From contig CAMTVZ010000165.1 of assembly GCA_947085285.1 (NCBI GenBank), positions 1 to 61,814 on the forward strand: a stretch of DNA of 61,814 nucleotides, read 5' to 3'. The notes under the pieces were generated by a model that saw only the letters and a program-made list of their open reading frames with translations, had not been told where the DNA came from and ran no database searches. The stretch's first letter is position 1; every line of letters begins with the position of its first letter. This document shows, one piece after another, positions 11,086 to 27,875 of the stretch. A program made the position numbers and the translations under genes. This DNA comes from an uncultured Ignavibacteriota bacterium (GTDB lineage: Bacteria; Bacteroidota; Ignavibacteria; UBA10030; BY39).

Positions 11086-12276
11086 TTACAAATGTTTACC
11101 AAGGTTTTCATAGTAATAAGATTCGAGCTGTTCAGCGATTATTTTCCAATCATATAACGAACGCACAATATTTTTAGCATTTTCGGAGAGACGTTTTTGC
11201 ATATCAGGATCTTTCAAAACTTTAACTACCGCATTTGCAAAATCTTCGGGGGTATCTGCTATGAGGATATCTCTTCCAGTTTCTACAGGTAATCCCTCAA
11301 CTCCTATGAAGGACGTAACAACAGGGACTCCAAGTGCCATTGGTTCTAATATTTTATTGAGAGTGCCAGCTCCGAACCGGATTGGTGCAATAACGACACT
11401 ACTCTTCAAATAATAATCTTTTATATCATGAACAAACCCTGTAATAATGATATCGTGTTGTGCAAGTTTCAGGATACTCGGCGGTGGGTCTTTCCCTACG
11501 ATATATAATTTTGCATCTTGTATCTGTTTTTTAATCAAAGGGAAAATTTCCTTAACAAAATAATGTACACCATCGGAATTTGGGAAATATGACATGTTAC
11601 CTGTGAAAATAATCCTGTTAGGTTCGCGTTCAACGTTTTGAGTATTTGTAAAATAATCTAAATCGATTCCGTTGTACAATAAGTCGATTTTTGCCTTGGG
11701 TGCGTTTTTTAATAAGAACTCCTTATCAACAGCCGAACAAACAAGGCATCTATTAAAATACTCTAAGATCTTTTCATACTTGCTAAGTCGTGTAAGCTCC
11801 GTCTTCAACAATAATTTATAGATGATATTTTTGTTTGTATTGAGAAAACGTTCAAGATAGAGGGAACCCGCATCAGTCAAATCTAAGATACGTGGGATTC
11901 TAAAATCTTTCATATATTGAGCCATTCTGATGAGATGGACATGCACGATGTCGAATTGTTTCGATTCAAATTCATTCTCAATTTGGCGCTTGAAGGTTTT
12001 AGATTTGTAATATGCCACCTGAAACGGTTTATTGGCTGGTATATTACAGATACAATTTAAAATCGATTTCCAGACAGGCAGGTAAATAGTTTTTACTTCT
12101 GAACAATATTCTTTGAGCATCGTAACATATTGCAACTCATCTTTAGAAGAAATAAACGACAACAATGTAATTTCATGTCCTCGCTTTGATAATTGTTTGA
12201 TGAGATTGAAAATTTTCAGCTTATCGCCGCGATAAGGGGGATAAGGTAGCCGAGATGTGAGTAGTAGTATGCGCAT
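11086..12276 (-). CDS. family-4 (GT-B) glycosyltransferase
   Basis: MRILLLTSRLPYPPYRGDKLK is a GT4-type N-terminus, and the C-terminal region has GAGTLNKILEPMALGVPVVTS. I prefer the Met at 12276 over the track start at 12309, which would overlap the upstream methyltransferase. Confidence 0.75.
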   Translation of the reverse strand: MRILLLTSRLPYPPYRGDKLKIFNLIKQLSKRGHEITLLSFISSKDELQYVTMLKEYCSEVKTIYLPVWKSILNCICNIPANKPFQVAYYKSKTFKRQIENEFESKQFDIVHVHLIRMAQYMKDFRIPRILDLTDAGSLYLERFLNTNKNIIYKLLLKTELTRLSKYEKILEYFNRCLVCSAVDKEFLLKNAPKAKIDLLYNGIDLDYFTNTQNVEREPNRIIFTGNMSYFPNSDGVHYFVKEIFPLIKKQIQDAKLYIVGKDPPPSILKLAQHDIIITGFVHDIKDYYLKSSVVIAPIRFGAGTLNKILEPMALGVPVVTSFIGVEGLPVETGRDILIADTPEDFANAVVKVLKDPDMQKRLSENAKNIVRSLYDWKIIAEQLESYYYENLGKHL

Positions 12277-12283
12277 TGTTTTA

Positions 12284-12970
12284 TTAATTAGTAGTAACTC
12301 GTTTAGCAATAACTACATTTGCAAAACCTAATAAATCCCAAAATGCTGTACCGCTAATAAAACCATATTTCCAAATATCATAGATAATGTAGATTGGAAG
12401 AAATAATATTCTTTTAAATGAACGGCGGGTTTTAGCAAGTAATATTTCGCAGTTATTGTTTTTTAGTGTATTTATCATCTCGCTCATTGGATAAATTCTT
12501 TTATGGGTTTGGTCGTCCCAAAAATTTAAAGTTCCTTTCATACTGGGCAAACTCAAGCTTATTTGACTTGGAGTTTCAATATATAAAATACCTCCATTTT
12601 TCAATTTTTTATGTAATTGTGATAATATCTCTAATCCCGATGAGAGATGTTCGATAATATGTGAGAAAATTATACAATCGTAGTAATCATCATGAATTTC
12701 ATCCAACGAGCTACTGTTTAAATCAATTTTATAAAATCTGTCAATGCAGGCAAAATCAGAGTCTTGATAATTATATGTTTGATTAATATCTAAACCATGA
12801 TATTCACAATTCCCGATATACTTTTTTGTTAACGATGGTGAATGATTGCCACATCCGATATCAAGAATTCTAAGGTGTCCAGAATTAAGATATTTTAGTA
12901 AGTAATCAAATCGAACTGGTCTTCGCAGATAACTAATAAAAAGATTGAATATATTAGAAAATTTATTCAT
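12284..12970 (-). CDS. class I SAM-dependent methyltransferase
   Basis: 228 aa. Motif I is ILDIGCGNH, followed by a post-I acidic residue (GLD) and motif II/III-like YDCIIFSHIIEHL...LKNGGILYIETP. Confidence 0.7.
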   Translation of the reverse strand: MNKFSNIFNLFISYLRRPVRFDYLLKYLNSGHLRILDIGCGNHSPSLTKKYIGNCEYHGLDINQTYNYQDSDFACIDRFYKIDLNSSSLDEIHDDYYDCIIFSHIIEHLSSGLEILSQLHKKLKNGGILYIETPSQISLSLPSMKGTLNFWDDQTHKRIYPMSEMINTLKNNNCEILLAKTRRSFKRILFLPIYIIYDIWKYGFISGTAFWDLLGFANVVIAKRVTTN

Positions 12971-14052
12971 CGGTTTAAGATAGAACGATATAGATTAATA
13001 TGGTTACGAACAACTTCGGTATAGGAATAGATAGAAGTGCCGCCATAGTTTAGGTTACTACGTAGGTTTGAATTATTATCGATATACGATAATAATTCGA
13101 TTAAATTTTCTTTATTATTTAGATCAAATAAAAAAAGTTGGTTGTTATGTCGCTTATGAAATTCAAGGTTCGTAGGTATATTAGATGCAATTATTGGTGT
13201 ATTGGTTACTATTGCTTCTGCAACAGGAATCCCAAAGCCTTCATACAGTGATGGCATCACGAGTGCTTTGCAGGTTTTGTATAGTTGGATGAGGTTTTCG
13301 TTCTGAATGTATCTTAGCCACACAATATTGGGATGTTTTATAAGGTGTTCAATTTCGTTAAAACCAAATCCTGCCTTACCGACTAAAATAAGCTTAGTAT
13401 TTTTAGATATTGCTGAAGATTTATATGCATTGATGAATGTGTTGAGTAAAAATGATATGTTTTTTCTTTGTTCTAGGGTCCCTACGAACAGGAAAAAACT
13501 ATCGTTGATATAGGGTTGATTCAATTCAAATATGTTCTCATTTTTAATTTGATTGAAATATAATTCGTTTACACCATTGAATATTACATTTACTTTTTGT
13601 TCTTGTATATTCTTAAATTTATCCAAAATTTCGGCTTTAATACTTTCGGAGGGAGTTACAATGGCTTCAACTCGTTCCAACGATTTGATTATTGCCCTTC
13701 TTATATATGGCAAATAATATTCAGGAAATAATTGCGGATATTTAAAAACACTTAAATCGTGTATTGTGGTAACCTGAATTATTTTTCGGTGTGGTTTGGG
13801 TGTATAATAATTTTGATAGTGAATTATATCATATTTTTTATTAAATATCGTTTCTAAATTTACATTAATGATATATAATTGTCGTCTAATTATACGAGGG
13901 AGGTACTTCAAGTAATTGTAATTGCTTAAATCACAATCAGTAATTTTATTAAGGTGTTTCCATAGGTTATAACTTACATTACCTATTCCTGTAAGATTAC
14001 CTAATGTGCTTAAACCTTCGTTAATTAAAATTTTCATTTGTTTAAAAACCAA
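12967..14052 (-). CDS. family-4 glycosyltransferase (tandem paralog 1)
   Basis: 361 aa with the E-x7-E region MPSLYEGFGIPVAEAIVTNTPIIASN. It is collinear with the next gene: ITDCDLSNYNYL versus ITDCKISTYSYL, and TIHDLSVFKYP versus TIHDLIPFRCP. Confidence 0.7.
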   Translation of the reverse strand: MVFKQMKILINEGLSTLGNLTGIGNVSYNLWKHLNKITDCDLSNYNYLKYLPRIIRRQLYIINVNLETIFNKKYDIIHYQNYYTPKPHRKIIQVTTIHDLSVFKYPQLFPEYYLPYIRRAIIKSLERVEAIVTPSESIKAEILDKFKNIQEQKVNVIFNGVNELYFNQIKNENIFELNQPYINDSFFLFVGTLEQRKNISFLLNTFINAYKSSAISKNTKLILVGKAGFGFNEIEHLIKHPNIVWLRYIQNENLIQLYKTCKALVMPSLYEGFGIPVAEAIVTNTPIIASNIPTNLEFHKRHNNQLFLFDLNNKENLIELLSYIDNNSNLRSNLNYGGTSIYSYTEVVRNHINLYRSILNR

Positions 14053-15130
14053 TAATTTTCTTATATGCCTTAAAATGATTCCTCGCTACAACGTCGTAGG
14101 TGTAATTATCTAAATTCTTATAATCTAACCTATCTCGATATATCTGATGTTTCTTGTCGAATTCAACAATTAACTCGCTTAGTTGATTTGGTTTTTCGAG
14201 CTCGAAAATAAACATTTGATCGTTATGAGCTTTGTTCAATTCGATGCTAGCTGCAATATTGGATATAATAATTGGACAATTTTGACTCATTGCTTCAAGC
14301 AAAACCATTCCATACCCCTCGTACATTGAAGGGAAAATAAATGCTTTTGCATACTTATAGAGTGCTACCATAATATTGTCGGAGATATAACCAAGGGTAA
14401 TGATGTTCTTAGAAGAGATCAATTTGCTATTAATAGAAGAATATCCGTAGGCCGGTTTTCCGGTAAGTATTAATTTTGTGTCGGGCGATATTCCTTTTTT
14501 TTCAAGTGCATTTTTAAAAGAGTCGATTAGATAAATTAAATTTTTTCTGGTAGTTAAATCGCCTACGAATAAAAAGTAGTTATATGGTTTGATATTGATT
14601 GTTAATAATTCATTATCCTCAACATTTGCTTTGAAAAAAATATCTCGCAAGCCACCACCACATATAAATATTTTTCTTTCTTCGATATGTGGGAATAAAT
14701 TTAGTATCTCGTTTTTTACAAAATTCGACAAAGTAATGATTGCATCGGATCGTTCAATTGAGTTTTTAGTAGCTCTCCTATTATACGATCGCCAGATAGC
14801 TGTTATTGTTTCTGGACATCTGAACGGAATTAGGTCGTGAATAGTTACAACTTTCTTGGCTGAAAATTTTGTGAACGGTACGTAGTGTGTTAAAAAATGG
14901 AGGATATCATATTTTTGGTTCAAATATTCAAGATTTGTGATGAACTCGTAAGTTAATCTCTTTGCTATTGGGGGCATTCGGTGTAGATAACTATATGTCG
15001 AGATTTTACAATCAGTTATTTTTTTGAGACTTAAATAAAGATTATCTGCGTGCTGACCAATTCCGCTAAGCATCTTTGATTTTGAAGGTCCAGCATCTAG
15101 TAAAATATCTAATTTGGAATTATCTAGCAT
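14042..15130 (-). CDS. family-4 glycosyltransferase (tandem paralog 2)
   Basis: 362 aa with FPSMYEGYGMVLLEAMSQNCPIIISN. It aligns end to end with 12967-14052. Confidence 0.7.
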   Translation of the reverse strand: MLDNSKLDILLDAGPSKSKMLSGIGQHADNLYLSLKKITDCKISTYSYLHRMPPIAKRLTYEFITNLEYLNQKYDILHFLTHYVPFTKFSAKKVVTIHDLIPFRCPETITAIWRSYNRRATKNSIERSDAIITLSNFVKNEILNLFPHIEERKIFICGGGLRDIFFKANVEDNELLTINIKPYNYFLFVGDLTTRKNLIYLIDSFKNALEKKGISPDTKLILTGKPAYGYSSINSKLISSKNIITLGYISDNIMVALYKYAKAFIFPSMYEGYGMVLLEAMSQNCPIIISNIAASIELNKAHNDQMFIFELEKPNQLSELIVEFDKKHQIYRDRLDYKNLDNYTYDVVARNHFKAYKKIIGF

Positions 15131-16394
15131 GTTTAAGCTCGGGTTTGATGCATATTAGATGAATTATTGATAAAGTAACGACATTATACACAAAGTGGAG
15201 TAAAGTAAACGCATTAAAGAAAAAGCTCATAAACACAGAGAAAGCAACTATCGCATAAATAGCAAGCCAAGCGAAATTTTTTTGTTCCAACATTTTATAA
15301 TATATATAACCCACGAATAGTCCAAACAAAAAAGGGAATAGCGCTAAACCGATTATGCCAAAATCAAAATAATAATACCAGTGAAAAGGATAGGTATTGT
15401 AACCGCTGATTAGTAATTCCATTTCATCGATGTTAAAGTATTTTAACAAATTCTTTTTTAATCCTGTAATTGCTAACAAAGGATTAAAGGTAAAATATCC
15501 ATAGGTATGGTAATATAATTTATCAACACCACGAGCAAAATTTTCAAGATTCATCGCAATGTACATATACGGTTCTGTTAGAACTGAATATTCTTCCGAA
15601 AATTTCATTTTAGATGTTAAGTAAACATATTTTTCAACATGCTTTAAAAATCTCAAGTTCATAATCGTATAAATTACGATAGCGAAGAATGATGCCCCTC
15701 CGATAATATAACGGAGTTTTATTTTTTTACCTGCATAGTAAAAAACAAGAACAATCATAAAAGCACCCATTACTAAATCCATCCTCTGTAATAACAGGGT
15801 ATATGAAATAATGGTAGCTATAAAAATCGAAAGTAATAAAAATTTTCTTTTACGAGTTTTGTATTTACTATAAATAAAATATTCAATTATCATTAATAGT
15901 ATCACGGGTGCTGAATGGACTAGTAAACCAAAACCAAATACAGTCATCTGAGTCCGGGATTCTCCGGGAAAAAAATGCAAAGCCGGAATAAACCCTTTAA
16001 TCAGAAAAGTTCCCATATAGCCTATCGTGTATATGAAAAATAATAGTATAGTTAGATAATAAAATAAATTTTCATTCATTCCTTTTGAATGAATAATTTC
16101 TCGAAATTCACTTCGGTTAGGGATAGGTTTATTGATATTCAATATGTAAATAAAAAATATTCCAGCCAAGAAAAACAACAGTCCCAACATTAACGTAATC
16201 CAGCTATACAAACTCCACTGGTGTTGGAAATGACTCAATTTGAGTTCTGCTAAACCGATGGCTAAAGACCATATCACAATAAATATTCTTGCTGGAGCAA
16301 AAAAGTCGGATGTTTTGCGTAACCCTGAAAAAAGGGTTAAGAAAAAAATTAAAAAACAAATAATCGAAATTATACTCATAAACACAACTAACAA
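15120..16394 (-). CDS. Wzy-like oligosaccharide repeat-unit polymerase (polytopic membrane protein)
   Basis: 424 aa with about 10-12 TM segments, no soluble domain, very low GC, and a position between the GT genes and Wzx. Assignment rests on topology and context only. Confidence 0.55.
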   Translation of the reverse strand: MLVVFMSIISIICFLIFFLTLFSGLRKTSDFFAPARIFIVIWSLAIGLAELKLSHFQHQWSLYSWITLMLGLLFFLAGIFFIYILNINKPIPNRSEFREIIHSKGMNENLFYYLTILLFFIYTIGYMGTFLIKGFIPALHFFPGESRTQMTVFGFGLLVHSAPVILLMIIEYFIYSKYKTRKRKFLLLSIFIATIISYTLLLQRMDLVMGAFMIVLVFYYAGKKIKLRYIIGGASFFAIVIYTIMNLRFLKHVEKYVYLTSKMKFSEEYSVLTEPYMYIAMNLENFARGVDKLYYHTYGYFTFNPLLAITGLKKNLLKYFNIDEMELLISGYNTYPFHWYYYFDFGIIGLALFPFLFGLFVGYIYYKMLEQKNFAWLAIYAIVAFSVFMSFFFNAFTLLHFVYNVVTLSIIHLICIKPELKHAR

Positions 16395-16735
16395 TCTATT
16401 AATTTAAAAATACTGTTATGGAGAAAGTGCCTCGCAACATATAATTTTATTTTATTGTTGTATAAATTTCGTAATGGTATTTCAAACGGTAAATAATCAT
16501 TGATCACAATTTTCTTCACATATGATGATATAGCTTTGGTAATTTTTGTGGTTGGTAAATTAAACGTAAAATCCCGACAAAACCTAACCACAGCCTTTTC
16601 TGACCGTTTCGGTGAGAGAAATATAATAGAATCGTTGAATATTATCTCAGCTCCTTTTCTGTTTCTAACGTCATCTATTAAAAGTCGATTAAATTGTATT
16701 TTTCCACATGTTTGTTTTAAAATATTTTTAATCAT
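16388..16735 (-). CDS. hypothetical protein (possibly the 3' part of a 162-codon gene interrupted by an in-frame TGA at 16757-16759)
   Basis: Track ORF of 115 aa with no motif I recognise. A 39-codon ORF (MIKRTNYFPDTLLTMYDTPEKYYNILFLNKAEIIHTLKY) starts at 16876 in an ATGA overlap with the Wzx stop. It is in the same frame as the track ORF. Confidence 0.4.
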   Translation of the reverse strand: MIKNILKQTCGKIQFNRLLIDDVRNRKGAEIIFNDSIIFLSPKRSEKAVVRFCRDFTFNLPTTKITKAISSYVKKIVINDYLPFEIPLRNLYNNKIKLYVARHFLHNSIFKLIDC

Positions 16736-16872
16736 TGAAATTTTTTCCAGATTCGCTCAATATTTTAGTGTATGAATTATTTCCGCTTTATTTAAAAACA
16801 GTATGTTGTAATATTTTTCGGGAGTGTCATACATAGTTAAAAGAGTATCAGGAAAGTAGTTTGTACGTTTTA

Positions 16873-18315
16873 TCATTTATTAATAGCAACTCCGTTTTTT
16901 TCTAAAGAAAATATTAACATTCTTTCTTGTCTATTCAAGCCACCGATATAAACTGTTATTATATAAACTATTAAAAACAAAATAATGCCATAAATCCAAA
17001 ATATATTAACCAGATAATAAAGGCTAAGTCCTAAGACTAGAGTTATTAAAATTGGTATCAAATAACGTTTCTCAAAAGTCCAACGTACAAAATGTTGATA
17101 ATTAGATAAAAGATATCCCAATCCTACAAAGATATTCGAAATAATAGCAACTATAGCTGCACCGTATGCCCCATGTATAGGAATGATTATCAAACAAGCT
17201 ACTAATGTTACTAAAGTTCCAGCCGCAGTAATAAGCATTCTAAGGTTTTGACGATTTGATGTTGTTAACATTAATCCATATGTTTCAGAGATGAAACGTG
17301 TTAAAATAACAAAAGCGGCAATTTTCATAATAGGAATAGCGGCATCGAAATTATTTTTGCCGTATAAAAATGTAATAATCTGCTCTGCGTAAATATAAAA
17401 AACCAAAGATATTGGGAGAGAAATGATACAAAAAGTTTTATTTAAAATACGGCTAAGTTTCAACCAACGTTCTGAATTTGTTTCGTACAGACTCGATAAG
17501 GTTGGCATTGAGGTAAAAACTAAGATGTCGGATAAAATTAATACTAAACTAACAAGCTTGAAGGCTGAGTCGTATATTCCAACTGCATAATCGCCTTTAA
17601 GAAAAGCAAGGAACGGTATAATCAGTTGAAAAAAGAGATTACCAAATATTAAACTAAAGCCGAATGCTAAAATTTTTGACTTATCCTCGTGCCAACCTTT
17701 AATTGTAAACCTGAATGATTTTAGCCCTATTATATTTTGAGCCTTATATGCCGCAAAGGCTAAAGCCAAACCTCGTGTTGAGATAAAAATTAATGCTATG
17801 TATAGGATATTTAATTTCAGAATACCGGCAATGACTAATAAAACTAAGAAAAATGAATTAACAATAAATGTAATTTTGGTTTCGTGATGGAATTGTTCTA
17901 AACCCCTAAGCAATGCAAAAAAATAATTTGTAAGTGAGTTAAAAATTACACTGAAGCTGAAAATTAGTATTAATAATTTTGTGAGTGAGCTGGTGTCGAG
18001 TATTAGTGGTATCGTCCATATACAAACTAAAGCAAACGATGCGAAAATAAGTTTAAAAGAAAAAAAACGATTGACTATTTCTCCTGCCTTTTCTTTGTTT
18101 CGAGCTACTTCGATAGTCATTAAAGCGTCAAATCCAAAATCAGAAATTAAAACAAATATTGTTGAAAATACGAATGCGGTAGAAAAACTGCCAAATATGT
18201 CGGGACCATAGAAACGGGCAACACCGACAAACATTAGTGCGCTTGAGAGTATACGAATAGCAGCAGACAAAAATGAGAGTATAGAATTGCGCTTCAATGT
18301 TGCCGTTTGGTCCAT
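16873..18315 (-). CDS. Wzx-type polysaccharide flippase (MOP superfamily)
   Basis: 480 aa with about 12-14 TM segments and a flippase-like N-terminus (NSILSFLSAAIRILSSALMFVGVARFYGPDIFG). It lies inside the EPS locus. Confidence 0.7.
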   Translation of the reverse strand: MDQTATLKRNSILSFLSAAIRILSSALMFVGVARFYGPDIFGSFSTAFVFSTIFVLISDFGFDALMTIEVARNKEKAGEIVNRFFSFKLIFASFALVCIWTIPLILDTSSLTKLLILIFSFSVIFNSLTNYFFALLRGLEQFHHETKITFIVNSFFLVLLVIAGILKLNILYIALIFISTRGLALAFAAYKAQNIIGLKSFRFTIKGWHEDKSKILAFGFSLIFGNLFFQLIIPFLAFLKGDYAVGIYDSAFKLVSLVLILSDILVFTSMPTLSSLYETNSERWLKLSRILNKTFCIISLPISLVFYIYAEQIITFLYGKNNFDAAIPIMKIAAFVILTRFISETYGLMLTTSNRQNLRMLITAAGTLVTLVACLIIIPIHGAYGAAIVAIISNIFVGLGYLLSNYQHFVRWTFEKRYLIPILITLVLGLSLYYLVNIFWIYGIILFLIVYIITVYIGGLNRQERMLIFSLEKNGVAINK

Positions 18316-22272: not shown

Positions 22273-22749
22273 TTAATCTTCAATTTTAAAAATTGTGTTA
22301 GGATCGTTTTCGTGCCGAATTTCATCAACTTTTTCTTTTTTCCCAATTCCCATGAATAATCGGTTCGGATAATTTGTTACCATCCCGAGTTGATTGCCAA
22401 TATTTTTATATGCGTGGACTACTCCTGGGGGAACAAGAATTGATTTTGGTTCATCCTCGCCGGCAGTGATTATCATTTTATTCAGGTAAGTTGGGGAATT
22501 CTTCCTATTATCCCATAGATAAATTTTGAAAGTCGATGGACCTATGAATCCAAATAAATCTGTCTGCTCGATGTGTTCGTGTGGACCGCGAGCAACTTGA
22601 GGTTTCGTCATTGAAATGTACGACATTTCGGGGCGAAATTCTGCTAAAAGTTCATCGTTGCGAAAAGTTTCGATAAGCCAACCGCGTTGGTCTGAATATT
22701 TACTTAATACTTTTATTACCACACCATTGATTGGAGCGTAGTTGAACAT
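22273..22749 (-). CDS. rfbC: dTDP-4-dehydrorhamnose 3,5-epimerase family protein (short cupin form)
   Basis: 158 aa. DQRGWLIETFR, RGPHEH and PPGVVHAYKN match the epimerase cupin core. No rfbA or rfbD lies in the window. Confidence 0.7.
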   Translation of the reverse strand: MFNYAPINGVVIKVLSKYSDQRGWLIETFRNDELLAEFRPEMSYISMTKPQVARGPHEHIEQTDLFGFIGPSTFKIYLWDNRKNSPTYLNKMIITAGEDEPKSILVPPGVVHAYKNIGNQLGMVTNYPNRLFMGIGKKEKVDEIRHENDPNTIFKIED

Positions 22750-23083
22750 ATTGTTTCCTGAATAGTTTGAAAATCTGCTTGAAAATAAGAAAAAAAGCTT
22801 TAAAAAACAATGGTAGCAATATGTTCGGTAAGTATTCCTTTATGTTTTTATGAAAATTCTGTGGAATGAATCTACAAAAAGCCCACATTAAAATCAAATA
22901 AAGGGGCTCTCCAATAAGTCCGAATACCTCGCCCTTGATGTTTGTCGAAATCTAAAACTGTGGAGTAATGAGCATTAGAACAAGTTCAGGGGATCGGGCA
23001 TTTTTGCTATTTGGGAAACTTCTTACGAGGGCTGATTTATAAAAGTATTTTTTTTAATAACTCAGCCCCCATTAGATTACTGA

Positions 23084-24238
23084 TTATGCAACTAAAACTT
23101 CTTTAGTTTTTTTTGTTAATTCGGCGGGTGTGAATGGTTTTGGGATGATGTCGAATGCACCTAATCTTATTGCTTCAATTGCATTTTCGATTGAAGCATA
23201 ACCTGAAATCATAATTACAGGTATTTCGGGCCAATTCCTTTTTATAGATTGCAGAACTTCAATACCGCTCCGCTTGGGCATCTTTAAATCTAACAGTATC
23301 AAATCGTATCTATTGAGTTTCATTTTTTGCAATGCTGCATCTACGTCGAATGCTTCTTCAACGGCGCAGCTTTGTTTAGATAAAATTTTTCGGACACTGT
23401 GGCAAACTATTGGCTCATCGTCAACAACTAATATGGAATGCTTTGCCGTTGCATCTCTGCCCCATAATGCTGTTAAAGGTATATCCGATCTGCTCAGACA
23501 ATTTATGTAATCGGAATTCGTTGCTTGTTCAACCTCAGAGATGCTGAATGGGAGGTCGGCATCGATTATTTCGGATGTATATCGTTTTACTTTAACGGCT
23601 TTTGTTCGCTCTTTCTTTTCGATTGGACATTCCCCGATACATTCACGCCCTTCGGTGATAACACGGCGGCATTCACGTTTCCCCAAATTGCAGTATGCTT
23701 TGACGGCTTCCTTTTTTGCAAGGGGCATATCGGAATGAGTAAGGGCTTCAACATATTCTATCGAAGTTGCTCTGGCTACTTCGTTTTTATTGAATGGCAT
23801 ATCAACATCAATTATTTCGGAAGTTTGCTCATAAACTTTGGGTTCAACTTTTCGTTGCTCAATTTTTAATTGTCGTTGTGTTAAAGCTTTTTTTGTAGCT
23901 TCGCTTAATTCATCGGGGGTGAAGGGTTTCGGTAAGTAGCTCGAAGCTCCAAGCTTTGTTGCCTTTACTGCTGATTCGATGGATGCGTAGCCAGTTATCA
24001 TTATTACTTCGAGGTCAGGATAATGATCTCGTATAATTTGCATCAATTCTATTCCGTTAGTTTTAGGCATCATTAAATCGGTAATCACTAAATCGAATGA
24101 AGTTTGATTAATTTTTTTAATTGCATCTTCAACACTCAATGCATTTTCTACTTCATAACCTTTGCGTGAGAGAATTTTATTTATACTTCTGCACACGGTT
24201 TCTTCGTCGTCGACCACTAATATTTTTTCAGTTATCAT
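23084..24238 (-). CDS. dual response-regulator receiver protein with a duplicated linker module and a four-Cys cluster (REC-[rpt-CX6CX9CX3CP-rpt]-REC); no output domain
   Basis: 384 aa.
- REC1 (aa 1-120): VVDDEE, ITD54LMMP, YLPKPF.
- REC2 (aa 268-384): VVDDEP, LLD317LKMP, IIPKPF.
- The linker holds two copies of SEIID[VA]D[ML]PF..EV..AT...Y.....SD[MI]PL, at aa 140-173 and 222-255.
- The copies flank C183-x6-C190-x9-C200-x3-C204-P.
- SD-like AAGGAA lies 8 nt upstream of the ATG. Confidence 0.8.
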   Translation of the reverse strand: MITEKILVVDDEETVCRSINKILSRKGYEVENALSVEDAIKKINQTSFDLVITDLMMPKTNGIELMQIIRDHYPDLEVIMITGYASIESAVKATKLGASSYLPKPFTPDELSEATKKALTQRQLKIEQRKVEPKVYEQTSEIIDVDMPFNKNEVARATSIEYVEALTHSDMPLAKKEAVKAYCNLGKRECRRVITEGRECIGECPIEKKERTKAVKVKRYTSEIIDADLPFSISEVEQATNSDYINCLSRSDIPLTALWGRDATAKHSILVVDDEPIVCHSVRKILSKQSCAVEEAFDVDAALQKMKLNRYDLILLDLKMPKRSGIEVLQSIKRNWPEIPVIMISGYASIENAIEAIRLGAFDIIPKPFTPAELTKKTKEVLVA

Positions 24239-24291
24239 TTTAATTTCCTTTTGATTTTTGATTAATTATAATTTTTTCATGCTTCTATAAC

Positions 24292-24307
24292 TGCAATCGC
24301 TATGCCA
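24292..24307 (-). promoter_or_regulatory. sigma-54 (-24/-12) promoter for the dual-REC gene
   Basis: The minus strand reads TGGCAT-AGCGA-TTGCA, against the consensus TGGCAC-N5-TTGCW with exact GG/GC spacing. The -12 element lies about 55 nt upstream of the ATG at 24238. A sigma-54 activator gene is immediately upstream. Confidence 0.6.
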
Positions 24308-24505
24308 TTGAAGTTTTAATGGGGAGTGATTAGCTATAATCTATTATATTATAATGAGTTATGGATGGAAAAATTATGGAAGAGTGAGGGATTTACGATT
24401 TTTATCACAAAAAATATAAATAGGAAAATGCTTAAATTGGGTTGGGAGGCGTATATTATTGAGATAAAAAAAATATACACCTGCATCTAAAATTGTGCAT
24501 AAAAA

Positions 24506-25900
24506 TTATTTTGAAATACCGTATTTCCGCATCAAAGCTTGAAAATTGGAGCGCTGCATTTCAACATCACGAGCAGCTTTCGAGATATTCCAGTTGTTTC
24601 GGATGAGAGCTTCTTCTATAAACATTTTTTCTATATCTTGAATTGATGCTTCACGTATTTGTTTCTTTAGCTTTTTGAGTTCCTCAGAATTTTTTGGGAT
24701 GAGTGATTTTGTTTGTGTCTCGGTTTTAAAGAGGGCGGCTGAAATATGAACAGGCAATATTTCATTTCCATCAACTAATATTGTTAATCGTTCAATTGTG
24801 TGTTCAAGTTCGCGAACATTTCCGGGCCAATGGTAATTAAGCAAAACTTCACAGGCTTCAAGTCCGATTTTTGGGATTGGTTTTGATAATTTGTTACAAG
24901 AAATTTTTAGAAATTTTTTTATCAGTTCAGGTATATCTTCTTTCCTCTCACGAAGTGGTGGTAGTTTAATAGGGAAAACATTCAGCCGGTAATAAAGGTC
25001 TTCCCGAAATTTTCCTTCGCTAACCAAGTTTTTCAAATTCTGGTTGGTAGCAAAAATCAATCGGACATCGACGTTTTTGATTTTTGTGCTTCCGACCGGA
25101 AGAATTTCTTTAGTTTGCAGAACGCGTAGTAACCGCGACTGTACTTCGAGCGATAGGTTACCGATTTCATCTAAGAAGATGGTTCCGTTATCAGCAACTT
25201 CAAACAATCCTTGTTTGTCGGAGGTAGCTCCAGTGAACGAACCTTTTTTATGGCCGAACAATTCGCTCTCTAACAAGGTAGTCGATAGTGTAGATATATC
25301 TAATGCAAAAAATTTTTCCTCTTTCCGTTTGCTGCAATTATGTATCGCTCGTGCTGTTAAATCTTTGCCGGTTCCGCTCTCACCGATTATTAAAACGGTG
25401 CAATCGGTAGGGGCAACTTTCCGAATTAAATTAAAAACCTCAATCATTTTAGGGCTTTGTCCGATAAAACCTTCAAAAACAGAAGCTTCAAAAGGCTCGG
25501 TTTCGTTTTTCATTTGTTGTATCAGTTTGCGTTTTTCTAATGCACGGTTGAGAACAGCTAAAAGTTCATTAGGAGTGAATGGTTTAGGGAGAAAATCGAA
25601 TGCACCCGATCGCATTGTTTCGACTGCTGCTGCAATAGTCGCATAACCAGTTATAATGATTACGACAGTCTCAGGATACCGCTGTTTGATTGTGGTTAAA
25701 ATCTCAAATCCACTTATATCCAACATCTTCAAATCGGTGAAGACCACATCGAAAGAATCGGATTGCAAAAGTGCAAGCGCCTGCTTGCCTGTTGTGCTGT
25801 ATTGTACTTTGTGTCCGGCACGCAGGAATATTTTTTCACAACTCTTACAGATAACTAATTCATCGTCAACGACTAATATTTTGGCTGTCATTTGTTTCAA
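24506..25900 (-). CDS. sigma-54-dependent Fis-family response regulator (NtrC-type enhancer-binding protein)
   Basis: 464 aa. REC domain: VVDDE, FTDLKM, LPKPF. AAA+ domain: GESGTGKDL, ELFGHKKGSFTGA (a GAFTGA variant), FLDEIG, RVLQ...PVG, FREDLYYRL. C-terminal HTH: NWNISKAARDVEMQRSNFQALMRKYGI. Confidence 0.9.
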   Translation of the reverse strand: MKQMTAKILVVDDELVICKSCEKIFLRAGHKVQYSTTGKQALALLQSDSFDVVFTDLKMLDISGFEILTTIKQRYPETVVIIITGYATIAAAVETMRSGAFDFLPKPFTPNELLAVLNRALEKRKLIQQMKNETEPFEASVFEGFIGQSPKMIEVFNLIRKVAPTDCTVLIIGESGTGKDLTARAIHNCSKRKEEKFFALDISTLSTTLLESELFGHKKGSFTGATSDKQGLFEVADNGTIFLDEIGNLSLEVQSRLLRVLQTKEILPVGSTKIKNVDVRLIFATNQNLKNLVSEGKFREDLYYRLNVFPIKLPPLRERKEDIPELIKKFLKISCNKLSKPIPKIGLEACEVLLNYHWPGNVRELEHTIERLTILVDGNEILPVHISAALFKTETQTKSLIPKNSEELKKLKKQIREASIQDIEKMFIEEALIRNNWNISKAARDVEMQRSNFQALMRKYGISK

Positions 25901-27875
25901 TTTCTAATGATTTTATTGGTAGATAGATAGTGAATGTAGTTCCGTTGCCCGTTACACTCTCGACATTTATAGTCCCGCCGTGCTGCTCAATAATTCCGTA
26001 ACTAATAGAAAGTCCTAATCCTGTGCCGTGTTCTTTTGTAGTAAAGAATGGGTCAAAAATTTTATCCCGAATGTGTTCTGGTATGCCGGGCCCTGTATCC
26101 TTAATCGAAACAACAATCGAGTTCTCATTTGCATCCATTTTTGATTCAATAATTAAATCGCCACCGCGAGTCATTGCTTCTGATGCGTTCAAAATTATGT
26201 TTATGAAAACTTGCTGAATTTGATCAGGGTCTGCCATTATTTCTGGTAGATCTTTTGAGAGATTTTTTTCAATCTTAATGTTTCGGAAAGAGGTCTGATT
26301 TCTTACCAGAAGAATTATGTTCTCGATTAAAGTGTTGATGTTTATTATTTTTTTTTGAGGAGCTATTTGTTTAGCAAAATCGAGGAGTCGCTTTACAATT
26401 TCGCGGCAACGTATCGTTTCTTTGACTATCAATTCAACGTCGTCACGCTTCGGATCGCCTTTCGGTAAATCTTCTAACAGTATGCTGCTGTTAGTTAATA
26501 TGCCGGTCAATGGATTGTTAATTTCGTGAGCAACACCTGCGGCAAGTTTGCCGAGCGAAGCAAGTTTTTCTGAACGGAATAATTGTGAGTGAATTTTTTT
26601 TATCTCCTTTGTCCGTTCTTCAACTTTTATTTCGAGTTTATTTCCCCATTCTTCTAGTTCAAGTTTCTCATTCTCGAGTTCTCTTGCCATGTAATTCAGT
26701 GAAGCTGCAAGTCGTTCAATCTCGCGCGGCGCCTTAAGTTCGAGATTGTGGTGATATTTACCCTCCGTTATTTCTACTGCGATTTCTTCCAACTTTTTCA
26801 GTGGGTTTGATATTTTTTTTGCCTGATGTATCGAAATTAAAACTATTAAAAGAATACCGACTAATGTAATTCCAAGAAAAGTTATTAAGGTATTTCGCAA
26901 TAAATCGTTAAACGGTTCTTTAAGAATACCCACATAAAGGATTCCGATAATTTTATTTTGAATATCCTTGATTGGTTCGTAGGCGCCGATGTACCAAGTG
27001 TTGACTACAAAGGCATCGCCAATCCAAAGTTTGCCATCTCTCAGTACGGCATCGTTTACTTCTTCTGAGACCAAGGTTGTGATAGCAACACTGCCGTCCT
27101 CGTTTTTCACGTTGGTCGAAATCCGCAAATCGTTCAAAAATATTGTAGCAGTGCTAACCTCCTTGCCTTTATATAATTCAGGCTCCTGCATAATTTTTTT
27201 AATTTTGTTAACAATTTCAAAATTCCTATTCAACAAAATTCCACCAATTAACACGCCTTGAAAAATATTTTCATCGTCGAAAATCGGCACGGCTGCCTTC
27301 AGCATCATACCCGATTTTTCTGAAAGCGATGTTCGGGGTTTGGCCATCGGTGTTGGAGTTATTTCCATGTGAGCTTGCTTGGCAAGGTCGGCTGATTCTC
27401 TATATAATTGATCAGCCGATACCACATCGGTCCCTGTTACAATTTGTTTAGTTTTTATAACCCGTTCAACGAAAAGATCATTAATTAATAAATCGCCGAA
27501 GGAATTCGGGTTTCTTCCGCGTGAAATAACTTTCCCATTCTTGTCAACGACAGTTAATATGTCGATTTGTTCACGTCTGAGAGTTCGTAGCAAATCTTTC
27601 TGTAAAAAATTTTTATCGTTTTCGCTGACTGCTTTTATCACTAAACTTCGGGCTGCTGTAAGTCGAACAATGCTCTCAATTTGTGAGATTTTATTTTGGT
27701 AAATTTCGCGTGCTGAGCTTAAATCGGAACGAACTTTTGTTTCGGCTCGAGTAATTATTTGGTCATAAATTAATTTCACCCCCACGATGCTTGTAATTAC
27801 AGCGGGAATAATAATAGCAATTGTGAAATAAATAATTAATTGAGATTGGATGCTTTTGGTTGTAAATGGTTTCAT
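25866..27875 (-). CDS. sensor histidine kinase (TM - extracytoplasmic Cache-like domain - TM - HAMP - HisKA - HATPase_c)
   Basis: 669 aa with two TM segments bracketing a sensor domain of about 300 aa and a HAMP-like segment after TM2. H-box GVAHEINNPL, N-box NIILNASEA, G-boxes DTGPGI and GTGLGLS. It overlaps the NtrC-type gene by 35 nt. Confidence 0.85.
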   Translation of the reverse strand: MKPFTTKSIQSQLIIYFTIAIIIPAVITSIVGVKLIYDQIITRAETKVRSDLSSAREIYQNKISQIESIVRLTAARSLVIKAVSENDKNFLQKDLLRTLRREQIDILTVVDKNGKVISRGRNPNSFGDLLINDLFVERVIKTKQIVTGTDVVSADQLYRESADLAKQAHMEITPTPMAKPRTSLSEKSGMMLKAAVPIFDDENIFQGVLIGGILLNRNFEIVNKIKKIMQEPELYKGKEVSTATIFLNDLRISTNVKNEDGSVAITTLVSEEVNDAVLRDGKLWIGDAFVVNTWYIGAYEPIKDIQNKIIGILYVGILKEPFNDLLRNTLITFLGITLVGILLIVLISIHQAKKISNPLKKLEEIAVEITEGKYHHNLELKAPREIERLAASLNYMARELENEKLELEEWGNKLEIKVEERTKEIKKIHSQLFRSEKLASLGKLAAGVAHEINNPLTGILTNSSILLEDLPKGDPKRDDVELIVKETIRCREIVKRLLDFAKQIAPQKKIININTLIENIILLVRNQTSFRNIKIEKNLSKDLPEIMADPDQIQQVFINIILNASEAMTRGGDLIIESKMDANENSIVVSIKDTGPGIPEHIRDKIFDPFFTTKEHGTGLGLSISYGIIEQHGGTINVESVTGNGTTFTIYLPIKSLEIETNDSQNISR

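Follow-up and report, generated by a model that had tools for sequence, protein, structure and literature searches.

A conserved sigma-54 two-component module with a putative REC-Cys4-REC effector in an uncultured Ignavibacteriota bacterium

The three-gene cassette and its sigma-54 promoter

This report concerns a cassette of three signalling genes on a contig of an uncultured Ignavibacteriota bacterium; the whole 61.8-kb stretch of that contig that was analysed is referred to below as the window. Three open reading frames (ORFs), all on the minus strand, encode a sensor histidine kinase, an NtrC-type sigma-54 enhancer-binding protein (EBP) and a protein in which two receiver (REC) domains flank a segment with four cysteines, called here the dual-REC or REC-Cys4-REC protein. 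A sigma-54 promoter precedes the gene for the last of these and a stem-loop follows it (Table 1). A preliminary description of this DNA had the coordinates and order of the genes exactly right, including the 35-nucleotide (nt) overlap of the EBP and kinase genes, which shrinks to 26 nt with an alternative ATG at 25891, and the gaps of 267 and 334 nt on either side of the dual-REC gene. The circuit formed by these genes appears firmly established by comparative evidence, and the function ascribed to it below is plausible.

Table 1. Features of the cassette, with positions in the window
Feature	Position	Strand	Basis
Sensor histidine kinase, 669 amino acids (aa)	25866-27875	-	ORF, Pfam
NtrC-type sigma-54 EBP response regulator, 464 aa, TTG start	24506-25900	-	ORF, Pfam, NCBIfam
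Upstream activating site 1, palindrome TGCACAATTTTAGATGCA, presumed EBP binding site	24482-24499		Conservation
Upstream site 2, tentative and degenerate, TGTATA-T7-TATCTC	24461-24479		Read in sequence; tandem spacing as in relatives
Sigma-54 promoter TGGCATAGCGATTGCA	24292-24307	-	Sole strict match in window, conservation
Dual-REC (REC-Cys4-REC) protein, 384 aa	23084-24238	-	ORF, Pfam
REC1	~23879-24226	-	Pfam, conserved columns, AlphaFold
Middle module, residues ~138-262	~23453-23827	-	Alignment; no Pfam, NCBIfam or PDB match
Cysteine cluster C183-x6-C190-x9-C200-x3-C204-P	23627-23692	-	Sequence, alignment
REC2	~23093-23440	-	Pfam, conserved columns, AlphaFold
Stem-loop directly 3' of the dual-REC stop, GGGGGCUGAG...AUCAGCCCUC	23022-23075	-	Folding, homology to locus L001

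Domains were assigned with Pfam, and placement at the family level was judged by the NCBIfam equivalog cut-offs. The N-terminal part of the kinase is a Cache-type extracytoplasmic domain of ~290 aa between two hydrophobic segments (sCache_3_3/Cache_3-Cache_2), which is followed by HAMP, HisKA (5.9e-15) and HATPase_c (1.6e-27) domains; the H-box reads HEINNPL, and the HisKA phospho-acceptor and HATPase_c domains of the NtrB/NtrC type are thus both present. The EBP has a Response_reg domain (2.1e-27), Sigma54_activat (7.9e-69), AAA_lid_14 and HTH_8 (1.3e-06), with the Walker A motif GESGTGKD and the loop GSFTGA, a sigma-54 contact loop of the GAFTGA type found in group I bacterial EBPs. Among the EBPs of orthologous loci this loop is GSFTGA, GAFTGA or GAYTGA. 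The kinase is nearest to AtoS/ZraS and the EBP to NtrC/AtoC/ZraR in NCBIfam, and neither reaches an equivalog cut-off. The EBP scores 426 bits for NtrC (cut-off 558.6), 378 for AtoC (714) and 356 for ZraR (760), and is also below the cut-off for NtrX; the matches of the kinase are confined to the kinase core and all fall short, with 253 bits for AtoS (646) and 207 for ZraS (479).

Orthologous loci were drawn from genome, metagenome and contig look-ups. The scan of genome contigs with the full-length alignment relied on generic receiver motifs, and five of its 80 loci are orthologues (L006-L080 were left out); the metagenome scan took as its query an alignment of close homologues of the middle module.

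The strict sigma-54 pattern TGGCAY-N5-TTGCW has a single match in the window, and this lies in the 267-nt gap between the EBP and dual-REC genes, which bears out the earlier statement that the only near-consensus -24/-12 promoter of this DNA is found there. The match places the -24 GG at 24305-24306 and the -12 GC at 24293-24294, with the ATG 69 nt further on, a -24 GG/-12 GC promoter ahead of a target gene being the arrangement of sigma-54 two-component systems. The transcription start site (TSS) is predicted at ~24281, which would give a 5' untranslated region of ~43 nt, and a ribosome-binding site, AAGGA, lies at 24246-24250. Taken alone the match is weak, since chance alone would give 0.14 matches and at least one turns up in 14 of 100 shuffles. 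Despite these single-window statistics, conservation across orthologous loci places the promoter far beyond chance. TGGCA...TTG is unchanged when six orthologous intergenic regions, elsewhere ~60 % identical, are aligned, and TGGCAY-N5-(T/A/G)TGN is found 58-80 nt ahead of the start codon in all 45 of the orthologous loci that extend far enough upstream. The strict -24/-12 pattern occurs 36 times at the dual-REC position, against five times elsewhere in 443 kb (both strands). It is near-certain, on these comparisons of sequence, that the promoter element is genuine.

The upstream DNA also carries a conserved palindrome, with the family consensus TGYATA-N6/7-TATRCA. Site 1 begins 7 nt past the stop codon of the EBP gene, ~175 bp upstream of the -24 element, and nowhere else does the window match TGCAY-N8-RTGCA perfectly. 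Of 43 orthologous loci, 34 have the palindrome at -200 to -300 from the ATG, ~190 bp upstream of the promoter, against a background in the same loci of 0.06 per 100 nt, and the remainder have the variant TGTATA-N6/7-TATACA. Strict palindromes are nearly restricted to the intergenic region between the EBP and dual-REC genes. Tandem copies spaced by 20 bp are seen in six loci (L094, L101, L104, L107, L122 and L126), and some loci have a third copy ~125-150 nt ahead of the ATG. Site 2 of the window lies at the same 20-bp distance from site 1, with a poor right half-site. Sequence conservation, phasing and the presence of multiple copies argue for a protein-binding site, suited to a dimer of the HTH_8 domain of the EBP, rather than an operon terminator. 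The palindromes are thus presumed to be EBP binding sites; a palindromic enhancer ~100-200 bp from the promoter, to which the EBP would bind, is again a feature of sigma-54 two-component systems.

More than 40 related genomes share the trio. The order kinase, EBP, gap (252-456 nt) and dual-REC gene is found in every locus of the family with enough upstream DNA except L118 and L119, in which the -24/-12 element is kept with no kinase or EBP within 6.5 kb. The order is also kept in distant members, such as P0132 (44 % identical), P0134 (47-49 %) and P0136 (45 %), and across these it persists at 36-47 % protein identity. In a sister clade (P0129, P0141 and P0154, at loci L085, L136 and L137) a PAS kinase takes the place of the Cache kinase, and the dual-REC protein has a different cysteine spacing, YCxVGxxVCDIFKKLGxTCKAGxKTxECPQ, and carries the module once or twice. 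A -24/-12 element stands before the dual-REC gene each time in the distant and sister-clade loci, that of L136 being weak and non-consensus (TGGTAC-N5-ATGT, 120 nt before the ATG). The circuit is represented in well over a hundred protein clusters, from metagenome-assembled genomes labelled Ignavibacteriota, Bacteroidota or Chlorobi, and a variant form occurs in candidate division BRC1 and on contigs of unknown taxonomy. The three genes thus form a self-contained and syntenic cassette, as had been proposed. Since their order, the position of the promoter and the upstream palindrome are conserved in ~45 loci, distant members included, the proposal that the promoter is placed for the EBP to drive the dual-REC gene is upheld, and the EBP very probably switches on this adjoining gene.

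A second -24/-12 element, TGGCAY-N5-TTGT, is present in four loci (L005:6127(-), L083:4099(-), L098:2620(-) and L107:2629(-)), 236-332 nt upstream of the kinase gene and pointing away from it. The next ORF, 200-470 nt from the element, is an HdrC/HdrB-like gene, an Ldh-type dehydrogenase or a paralogous Cache kinase, and in L005 the element is separated from the kinase gene by a palindromic site (6285). Such an element could belong to one more target of the EBP, to a small RNA or to a long leader. The window has no counterpart upstream of its kinase gene.

The dual-receiver protein and its cysteine module

Pfam recognises two Response_reg domains in the dual-REC protein and nothing else. The acid pocket, acceptor Asp, Thr/Ser and Lys are intact in both receivers (D10, D11, D54, T82 and K104 in REC1; D273, D274, D317, S345 and K367 in REC2), and these catalytic residues are invariant in the alignment of all close homologues. 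Both receivers are modelled by AlphaFold with block-mean confidence (pLDDT) of ~80-91. A Foldseek search with the full-length model finds receiver domains only, the best full-length match being PleD, with a TM-score of ~0.3 gained through the receivers. REC1, REC2 and the EBP receiver are 44-51 % identical in pairs (44-45 % for either dual-REC receiver against that of the EBP) and have in common an alpha-1 motif, V/I-C-x-S-x-x-K-I. This similarity and the shared motif make the same kinase the likely phosphate donor, and a common kinase specificity of the three receivers is suggested. Some relatives have a second, paralogous Cache/HAMP kinase, divergent and upstream of the cassette (L003:3347-5182(-), ~47 % identical; L107:201-2159(-); L098:1-981(-)), and in these the three receivers may be supplied by more than a single kinase.

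Between the receivers lies a module of ~125-140 aa, in which two copies of a ~35-aa acidic unit enclose a cluster of four cysteines followed by a Lys/Arg-rich helix. The unit follows the pattern IDVDMPF..EV...TS.EYV..L..SD.P, its two copies being identical at 19 of 38 positions. Across the family the cysteines are spaced as C-x6-C-x8/9-C-x2-8-C-P. C183, C190 and C204 are invariant and the D-x-D-x-P-F motifs unchanged down to 34-49 % identity, and C200 is invariant in the close subfamily. No match for the module was found in Pfam, which gives only scattered noise at E up to 10, or in NCBIfam, nor did a profile of it match any PDB sequence at E up to 10. It does match 46 representative clusters among 1.84 billion, one of them from candidate division BRC1. 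Both the cysteine spacing and the terminal Cys-Pro resemble an iron-sulfur (Fe-S) site more than a zinc ribbon, and the four invariant cysteines would form a metal or Fe-S site that probably contributes to activity.

The cluster is also found in small proteins without receivers (P0144, P0149, P0153 and P0161, of 106-119 aa, and P0135, of 169 aa), together with one or two IDVDMPF units, so that the module is autonomous. The dual-REC protein had been described as output-less, a label that does not fit a middle segment which is strongly conserved, autonomous and found as stand-alone small proteins.

The close subfamily also shares three invariant cysteines outside the cluster, C16, C247 and C279. 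Each receiver has one of them in its helix alpha-1, as does the EBP receiver, and one lies in the second repeat unit, where the first has Ala. In a paralogue, P0138 (397 aa), both IDVDMPF-type units are kept and the four cysteines are lost; its second receiver is degenerate, reading VIDEDP, and FLNSN where LLDLK would stand. This copy may have lost its activity or taken on another role.

Neighbouring genes and the 3' end of the transcription unit

Genes for hydrogen and heterodisulfide-reductase-type metabolism recur beside the cassette in other genomes. For neighbour-gene statistics, the ORFs of 26 loci were clustered, annotated with Pfam and mapped by tblastn. A HycI-type hydrogenase maturation protease is encoded near the cassette in 16 of these loci, and CCG (HdrB-like) and Fer4_8 (HdrC-like) proteins in 13 each. 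HdrA-like FAD/Fer4, DRTGG and [FeFe]-hydrogenase-like proteins (Fer4, Fe_hyd_lg_C and FeS) are encoded in five to six loci each, and the large and small subunits of an [NiFe]-hydrogenase in four by clustering and in up to seven by tblastn. Overall, at least one hydrogenase- or Hdr-type gene adjoins the cassette in ~25 non-redundant loci. The placement of these genes varies, some being divergent from the kinase, others downstream on the same strand after a terminator, and others downstream and convergent. All three sister-clade loci (L085:9954-17677, L136:9249-15444 and L137:5336-10247) have on the same strand genes for NuoE-like (2Fe-2S_thioredx), NuoF-like (Complex1_51K) and ~1100-aa Fer2_4/Fer4/Pyr_redox_2 proteins, to which L085 adds FlpD; the set suggests an NADH-dependent complex that resembles Flx/Hdr or Nfn. 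The 280-660-nt gap that follows the dual-REC gene in the sister clade contains no second -24/-12 element. The likely physiological context of the cassette is thus redox metabolism of the hydrogen/heterodisulfide-reductase type, an association and not a demonstrated regulation.

Where Hdr/HycI operons follow the dual-REC gene (L118, L122-L127), no -24/-12 element precedes them in four of five loci, and L118 has one weak, non-consensus GG/GC match. In two loci (L127:8735-9150 and L118:7902-8339) a small ORF whose translation resembles an Rrf2-type (Fe-S) transcription factor (MLYSKSCEYSIRALTYL...) lies between the dual-REC gene and a HycI-HdrCBA-DRTGG-[FeFe]-hydrogenase-like operon. A palindromic TGTATA...TATRCA stands just ahead of this ORF in L127, and similar sites occur in the equivalent gap of L122, L123 and L126.

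The 3' side of the dual-REC gene bears on how far its transcript extends. A hairpin followed by a T tract occurs within 130 nt of the dual-REC stop in 32 of 44 loci, many of these being textbook terminators; the window has no such combination. The next gene is convergent in 16 of 30 informative loci, and same-direction neighbours vary from locus to locus. With a next gene that is convergent or variable and with terminators in between, the conserved transcription unit is the dual-REC gene alone. The hairpin of the window, 9-62 nt past the stop codon, has a folding energy of -23.9 kcal/mol (z = -3.3) and is homologous to the terminator hairpin of L001, although it has no U tract. The remark that the 334-nt gap has no convincing terminator therefore holds as regards the U tract and not as regards the hairpin, which is strong. 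The hairpin has a longer loop than the 8 nt allowed by the consensus terminator scan, and hence was missed by that scan; an Rfam scan of 22600-24600 gave no match. Compared with L001, ~100 nt (window 22905-23030) are apparently inserted between the hairpin and a conserved block, ATTTGATTTTAAT.TGGGC.TTTTGTAGATTCATTC. This insertion splits the hairpin from its T-rich tail and may weaken the terminator in this lineage.

Beyond the gap lies a Wzx/Wzy-type polysaccharide locus, with genes for an RmlC-like cupin, RmlB, Wza, Wzz/GNVR, a Polysacc_synt flippase, GT4 glycosyltransferases and a Bac_transf initiating transferase. The preliminary description, which listed rfbC-rfbB-wza-wzz of a Wzx/Wzy cluster, was right that the locus is genuine; its 'rfbC' (22273-22749), however, is only RmlC-like. 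The product of this gene is short (158 aa). It scores 42 bits for Pfam dTDP_sugar_isom but only 27.5 for NCBIfam rmlC, where the cut-off is 155.75, and its probable identity is a cupin-type sugar epimerase or isomerase with another specificity.

The proposed circuit, its alternatives and known systems

The arrangement suggests a scheme in which the membrane Cache/HAMP kinase would phosphorylate the NtrC-type EBP, which would then bind one or two of the palindromes just past its own stop codon and, from ~175-190 bp upstream, activate sigma-54 RNA polymerase at TGGCAT-N5-TTGCA. The transcript would be essentially monocistronic and encode the REC-Cys4-REC protein. The level of this protein would be set by transcription, through the kinase, the EBP and sigma-54, and its activity probably by phosphorylation of both receivers, with the same kinase as likely donor; the metal or Fe-S site probably adds to this control. 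The outcome would be a branched circuit of one kinase and three receivers, with feed-forward (an AND-gate) and/or feedback by a phosphate sink. The feed-forward or feedback branch put forward earlier is thus a reasonable reading of the promoter placement. A phosphorelay, offered at the same time, is not: the kinase has neither a receiver nor an Hpt domain, Pfam finds no Hpt match in any of the three proteins, and the lack of an Hpt domain and of a hybrid kinase excludes a classical phosphorelay.

Since the dual-REC gene is the only conserved target, the REC-Cys4-REC protein is best read as the effector of the module, and it is most likely the dedicated product and effector. The kinase, EBP and promoter constitute an ordinary NtrBC-type system, and the undescribed part is the effector. 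On balance we favour, as probable, a conserved three-gene module running from kinase through EBP, palindrome and sigma-54 promoter to a REC-Cys4-REC effector in a redox or hydrogen context. A bolder proposal can be made only tentatively. The middle module would be a new metal or Fe-S domain with a sensory or output role, and the REC-Cys4-REC protein the true effector of a widespread undescribed circuit that gates on an extracytoplasmic signal and on intracellular redox or hydrogen status and acts on electron-bifurcating complexes of the Mvh/Hdr and Flx/Hdr types in Ignavibacteriota and other anaerobic lineages. If the protein is such an effector, two conditions would have to coincide: transcription and phosphorylation, driven through the Cache kinase, the EBP and sigma-54, and an appropriate redox or hydrogen status at the Cys4 site.

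Several observations weigh against the favoured module. None of the RNA runs that were screened contains the window sequence, and both the TSS and the dependence on sigma-54 are predictions. No ORF with an RpoN box, and no rpoN, is present in the 61.8 kb, which is the only part of the genome covered. The last base of the -12 GC is C, T or A among orthologues. The receivers of unrelated NtrX and NtrC1 proteins are 35-41 % identical, little below the 44-45 % on which a shared kinase is argued. AlphaFold gives a pLDDT of 40-73 for the middle module, within the whole protein and alone, with no confident fold, and an Fe-S cluster, zinc and no metal at all are indistinguishable. By tblastn no hydrogenase or Hdr homologue occurs in the window, and the redox link is an association in other genomes, where no -24/-12 element belongs to the neighbouring hydrogenase/Hdr operons themselves, which appear to be served by separate regulator genes, one for a MarR-type winged helix (Pfam) and others Rrf2-like on reading the translation. 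The hairpin without a U tract would also make possible some read-through into the RmlC-like gene of the window, for which there is no positive support.

Of the other ways to read the locus, the strongest makes the dual-REC protein purely a phosphate sink, a negative feedback that drains the kinase and gives a pulse or adaptation, with the real outputs at other EBP-dependent promoters elsewhere. Two intact receivers closely related to that of the EBP, and no recognisable enzymatic or DNA-binding output domain, are what such a sink would look like, and the divergent elements upstream of the kinase in four loci, one with a palindrome, hint at further EBP targets. The dual-REC promoter and its upstream site are, however, the only conserved pair in the ±7-10 kb of all loci, and a mere sink has no need of an invariant Cys4 module with two conserved units that also occurs stand-alone; we regard a pure sink as unlikely. 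Less likely still is a zinc-finger-like module that binds nucleic acid, which would make the dual-REC protein a phosphorylation-controlled regulator that binds DNA or RNA, the second tier of a transcriptional cascade. The module is autonomous, a basic stretch follows the fourth Cys directly in both subfamilies (CPIEKKEKARAK and CPQLKKVKK), and one of 18 members has a weak zf-CCCH match (E = 0.055). This proposal has to accommodate the absence of CxxC knuckles, with an x6/x8-9/x2-8 spacing and terminal C-P that are more Fe-S-like, the lack of a significant match to any DNA-binding family and a structural model of low confidence.

The remaining alternatives concern what lies on either side of the dual-REC gene. 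Its promoter might be served by a non-adjacent EBP, the adjacency being coincidental and the palindrome with a T-run being the terminator of the kinase-EBP operon. L118 and L119 would suit this, with a -24/-12 element far from any kinase or EBP, as would the T8 run that begins 8 nt after the palindrome in the window. It seems very improbable nonetheless, given that the palindrome is conserved as sequence and beyond complementarity, that several loci have two or three phased copies, some of them far from the EBP stop, and that gene order survives the divergence of distant members and a change between two kinase types. As for the polysaccharide genes, the cassette was earlier nominated as a regulator of exopolysaccharide (EPS) or capsule production, which could in theory come about if the sigma-54 transcript ran through the 334-nt gap into the RmlC-like, RmlB, Wza and Wzz genes, or if the dual-REC protein acted on the EPS machinery. 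The two lie adjacent on the same strand, here and in the 74 %-identical L002, the hairpin between them has no U tract and is separated from the T-rich block by the apparent insertion, and sigma-54 is in general often associated with EPS genes (PMC3162934). However, EPS genes follow the cassette in only these two of ~30 informative loci (the contig of L001 ends too early to tell), most relatives have a terminator at this point, and in a search of the window the EPS genes and their surroundings show neither a further -24/-12 element nor an upstream site. The kinase and EBP also score far below the PrsK/PrsR cut-offs given below. Control of EPS by the cassette is therefore improbable, about as much so as the nucleic-acid-binding module, and the adjacency is a lineage-specific rearrangement. 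Adjacency in a single genome is thus insufficient grounds for the annotation 'EPS regulator'.

PrsK/PrsR is a sigma-54 two-component system associated with PEP-CTERM/EpsH and linked to EPS loci (PMC1569441), and the cassette resembles it in having a kinase and sigma-54 EBP pair that adjoins an exopolysaccharide locus. It was ruled out by score (TIGR02916, 105.8 bits against 300; TIGR02915, 353.2 against 502.6), and the adjacency to EPS genes is not conserved here. The NtrB/NtrC system acting at glnAp2 is similar in its HisKA/HATPase kinase, its REC-AAA+-HTH_8 activator with a GAFTGA-type loop and its tandem palindromic enhancers ~100-200 bp upstream of a -24/-12 promoter. There, too, the activator induces a small signalling protein able to feed back, NtrC-induced glnK acting on NtrB. 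In contrast, the proteins of the cassette fall below the NCBIfam cut-offs for NtrC, AtoC, ZraR and NtrX, its kinase has a membrane Cache sensor, and its conserved target encodes REC-Cys4-REC rather than a metabolic operon or a PII protein.

Other comparisons concern the redox context. In HoxJ/HoxA/HoxBC of Cupriavidus and HupT/HupR/HupUV of Rhodobacter, a kinase, an NtrC-family regulator and a metal-cluster sensory protein are encoded beside hydrogenase genes. The likeness of these hydrogen-sensing systems to the cassette, a kinase and NtrC-family regulator with an extra protein, is one of context only and by description; the cassette has no regulatory [NiFe] hydrogenase, its accessory protein is a dual receiver, and there are no hydrogenase genes in the window. 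Rhizobial NifA has a Cys motif. The operon DVU2405-DVU2399 of Desulfovibrio vulgaris is flx-hdr. This operon, classed under energy metabolism, is controlled by the GSFTGA-type EBP and kinase DVU2394/DVU2395 (PMC4641369). The cassette EBP has the same GSFTGA variant, and an Hdr/NADH-oxidoreductase-type association is common, by description, to that operon and the sister-clade loci L085, L136 and L137; the reported target in D. vulgaris is, however, the redox operon itself, with no REC-Cys4-REC intermediate described. OrpR is reported to be a sigma-54-dependent activator with an iron-sulfur cluster for redox sensing (PMC8359166). OrpR and NifA resemble the cassette in using a conserved cysteine cluster as redox or metal input to a sigma-54 circuit in anaerobes, but their cysteines are in the EBP, whereas here they are in a separate protein made from the sigma-54 promoter, whose binding of metal is putative.

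Among proteins with receivers but different outputs, PleD (REC-REC-GGDEF) likewise has two CheY-like domains per chain, and the dual-REC protein is likely to resemble CheY-type sinks and RssB-type adaptors in acting by protein-protein contact or phosphate competition. Unlike PleD, it has no GGDEF or other known output domain in Pfam or NCBIfam, and its receivers are split by the Cys4 module. The second receiver of PleD is degenerate, whereas in the dual-REC protein no acceptor residue is missing from either receiver.

Sigma-54 two-component systems are textbook material; the sole conserved product of this one is another signalling protein, with a domain absent from Pfam, NCBIfam and PDB. Searches of the literature brought up no specific account of the REC-Cys4-REC architecture or of sigma-54 systems from Ignavibacteria. 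The cassette would be a clean natural example of a branched design with one kinase and three receivers, with transcriptional feed-forward and possible feedback by a phosphate sink. To our knowledge almost nothing is known of how uncultured anaerobes regulate electron-bifurcating metabolism, and the recurrent Mvh/Hdr hydrogenase, heterodisulfide-reductase and NuoEF/HdrA-like neighbours provide a testable entry into this question.

Some minor features of the window lie outside the cassette. A Bat-type operon, whose genes include those for BatD and a TPR/SH3 protein, lies upstream of it in the same orientation. In the middle of the polysaccharide locus (12001-18000) the G+C content is ~30 %, against 35-39 % in most of the remaining window, as is usual for glycosyltransferase blocks that are exchanged horizontally and vary with serotype. 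An ORF within it (15120-16394, 424 aa) has no Pfam match and sits at the place expected for the Wzy polymerase.

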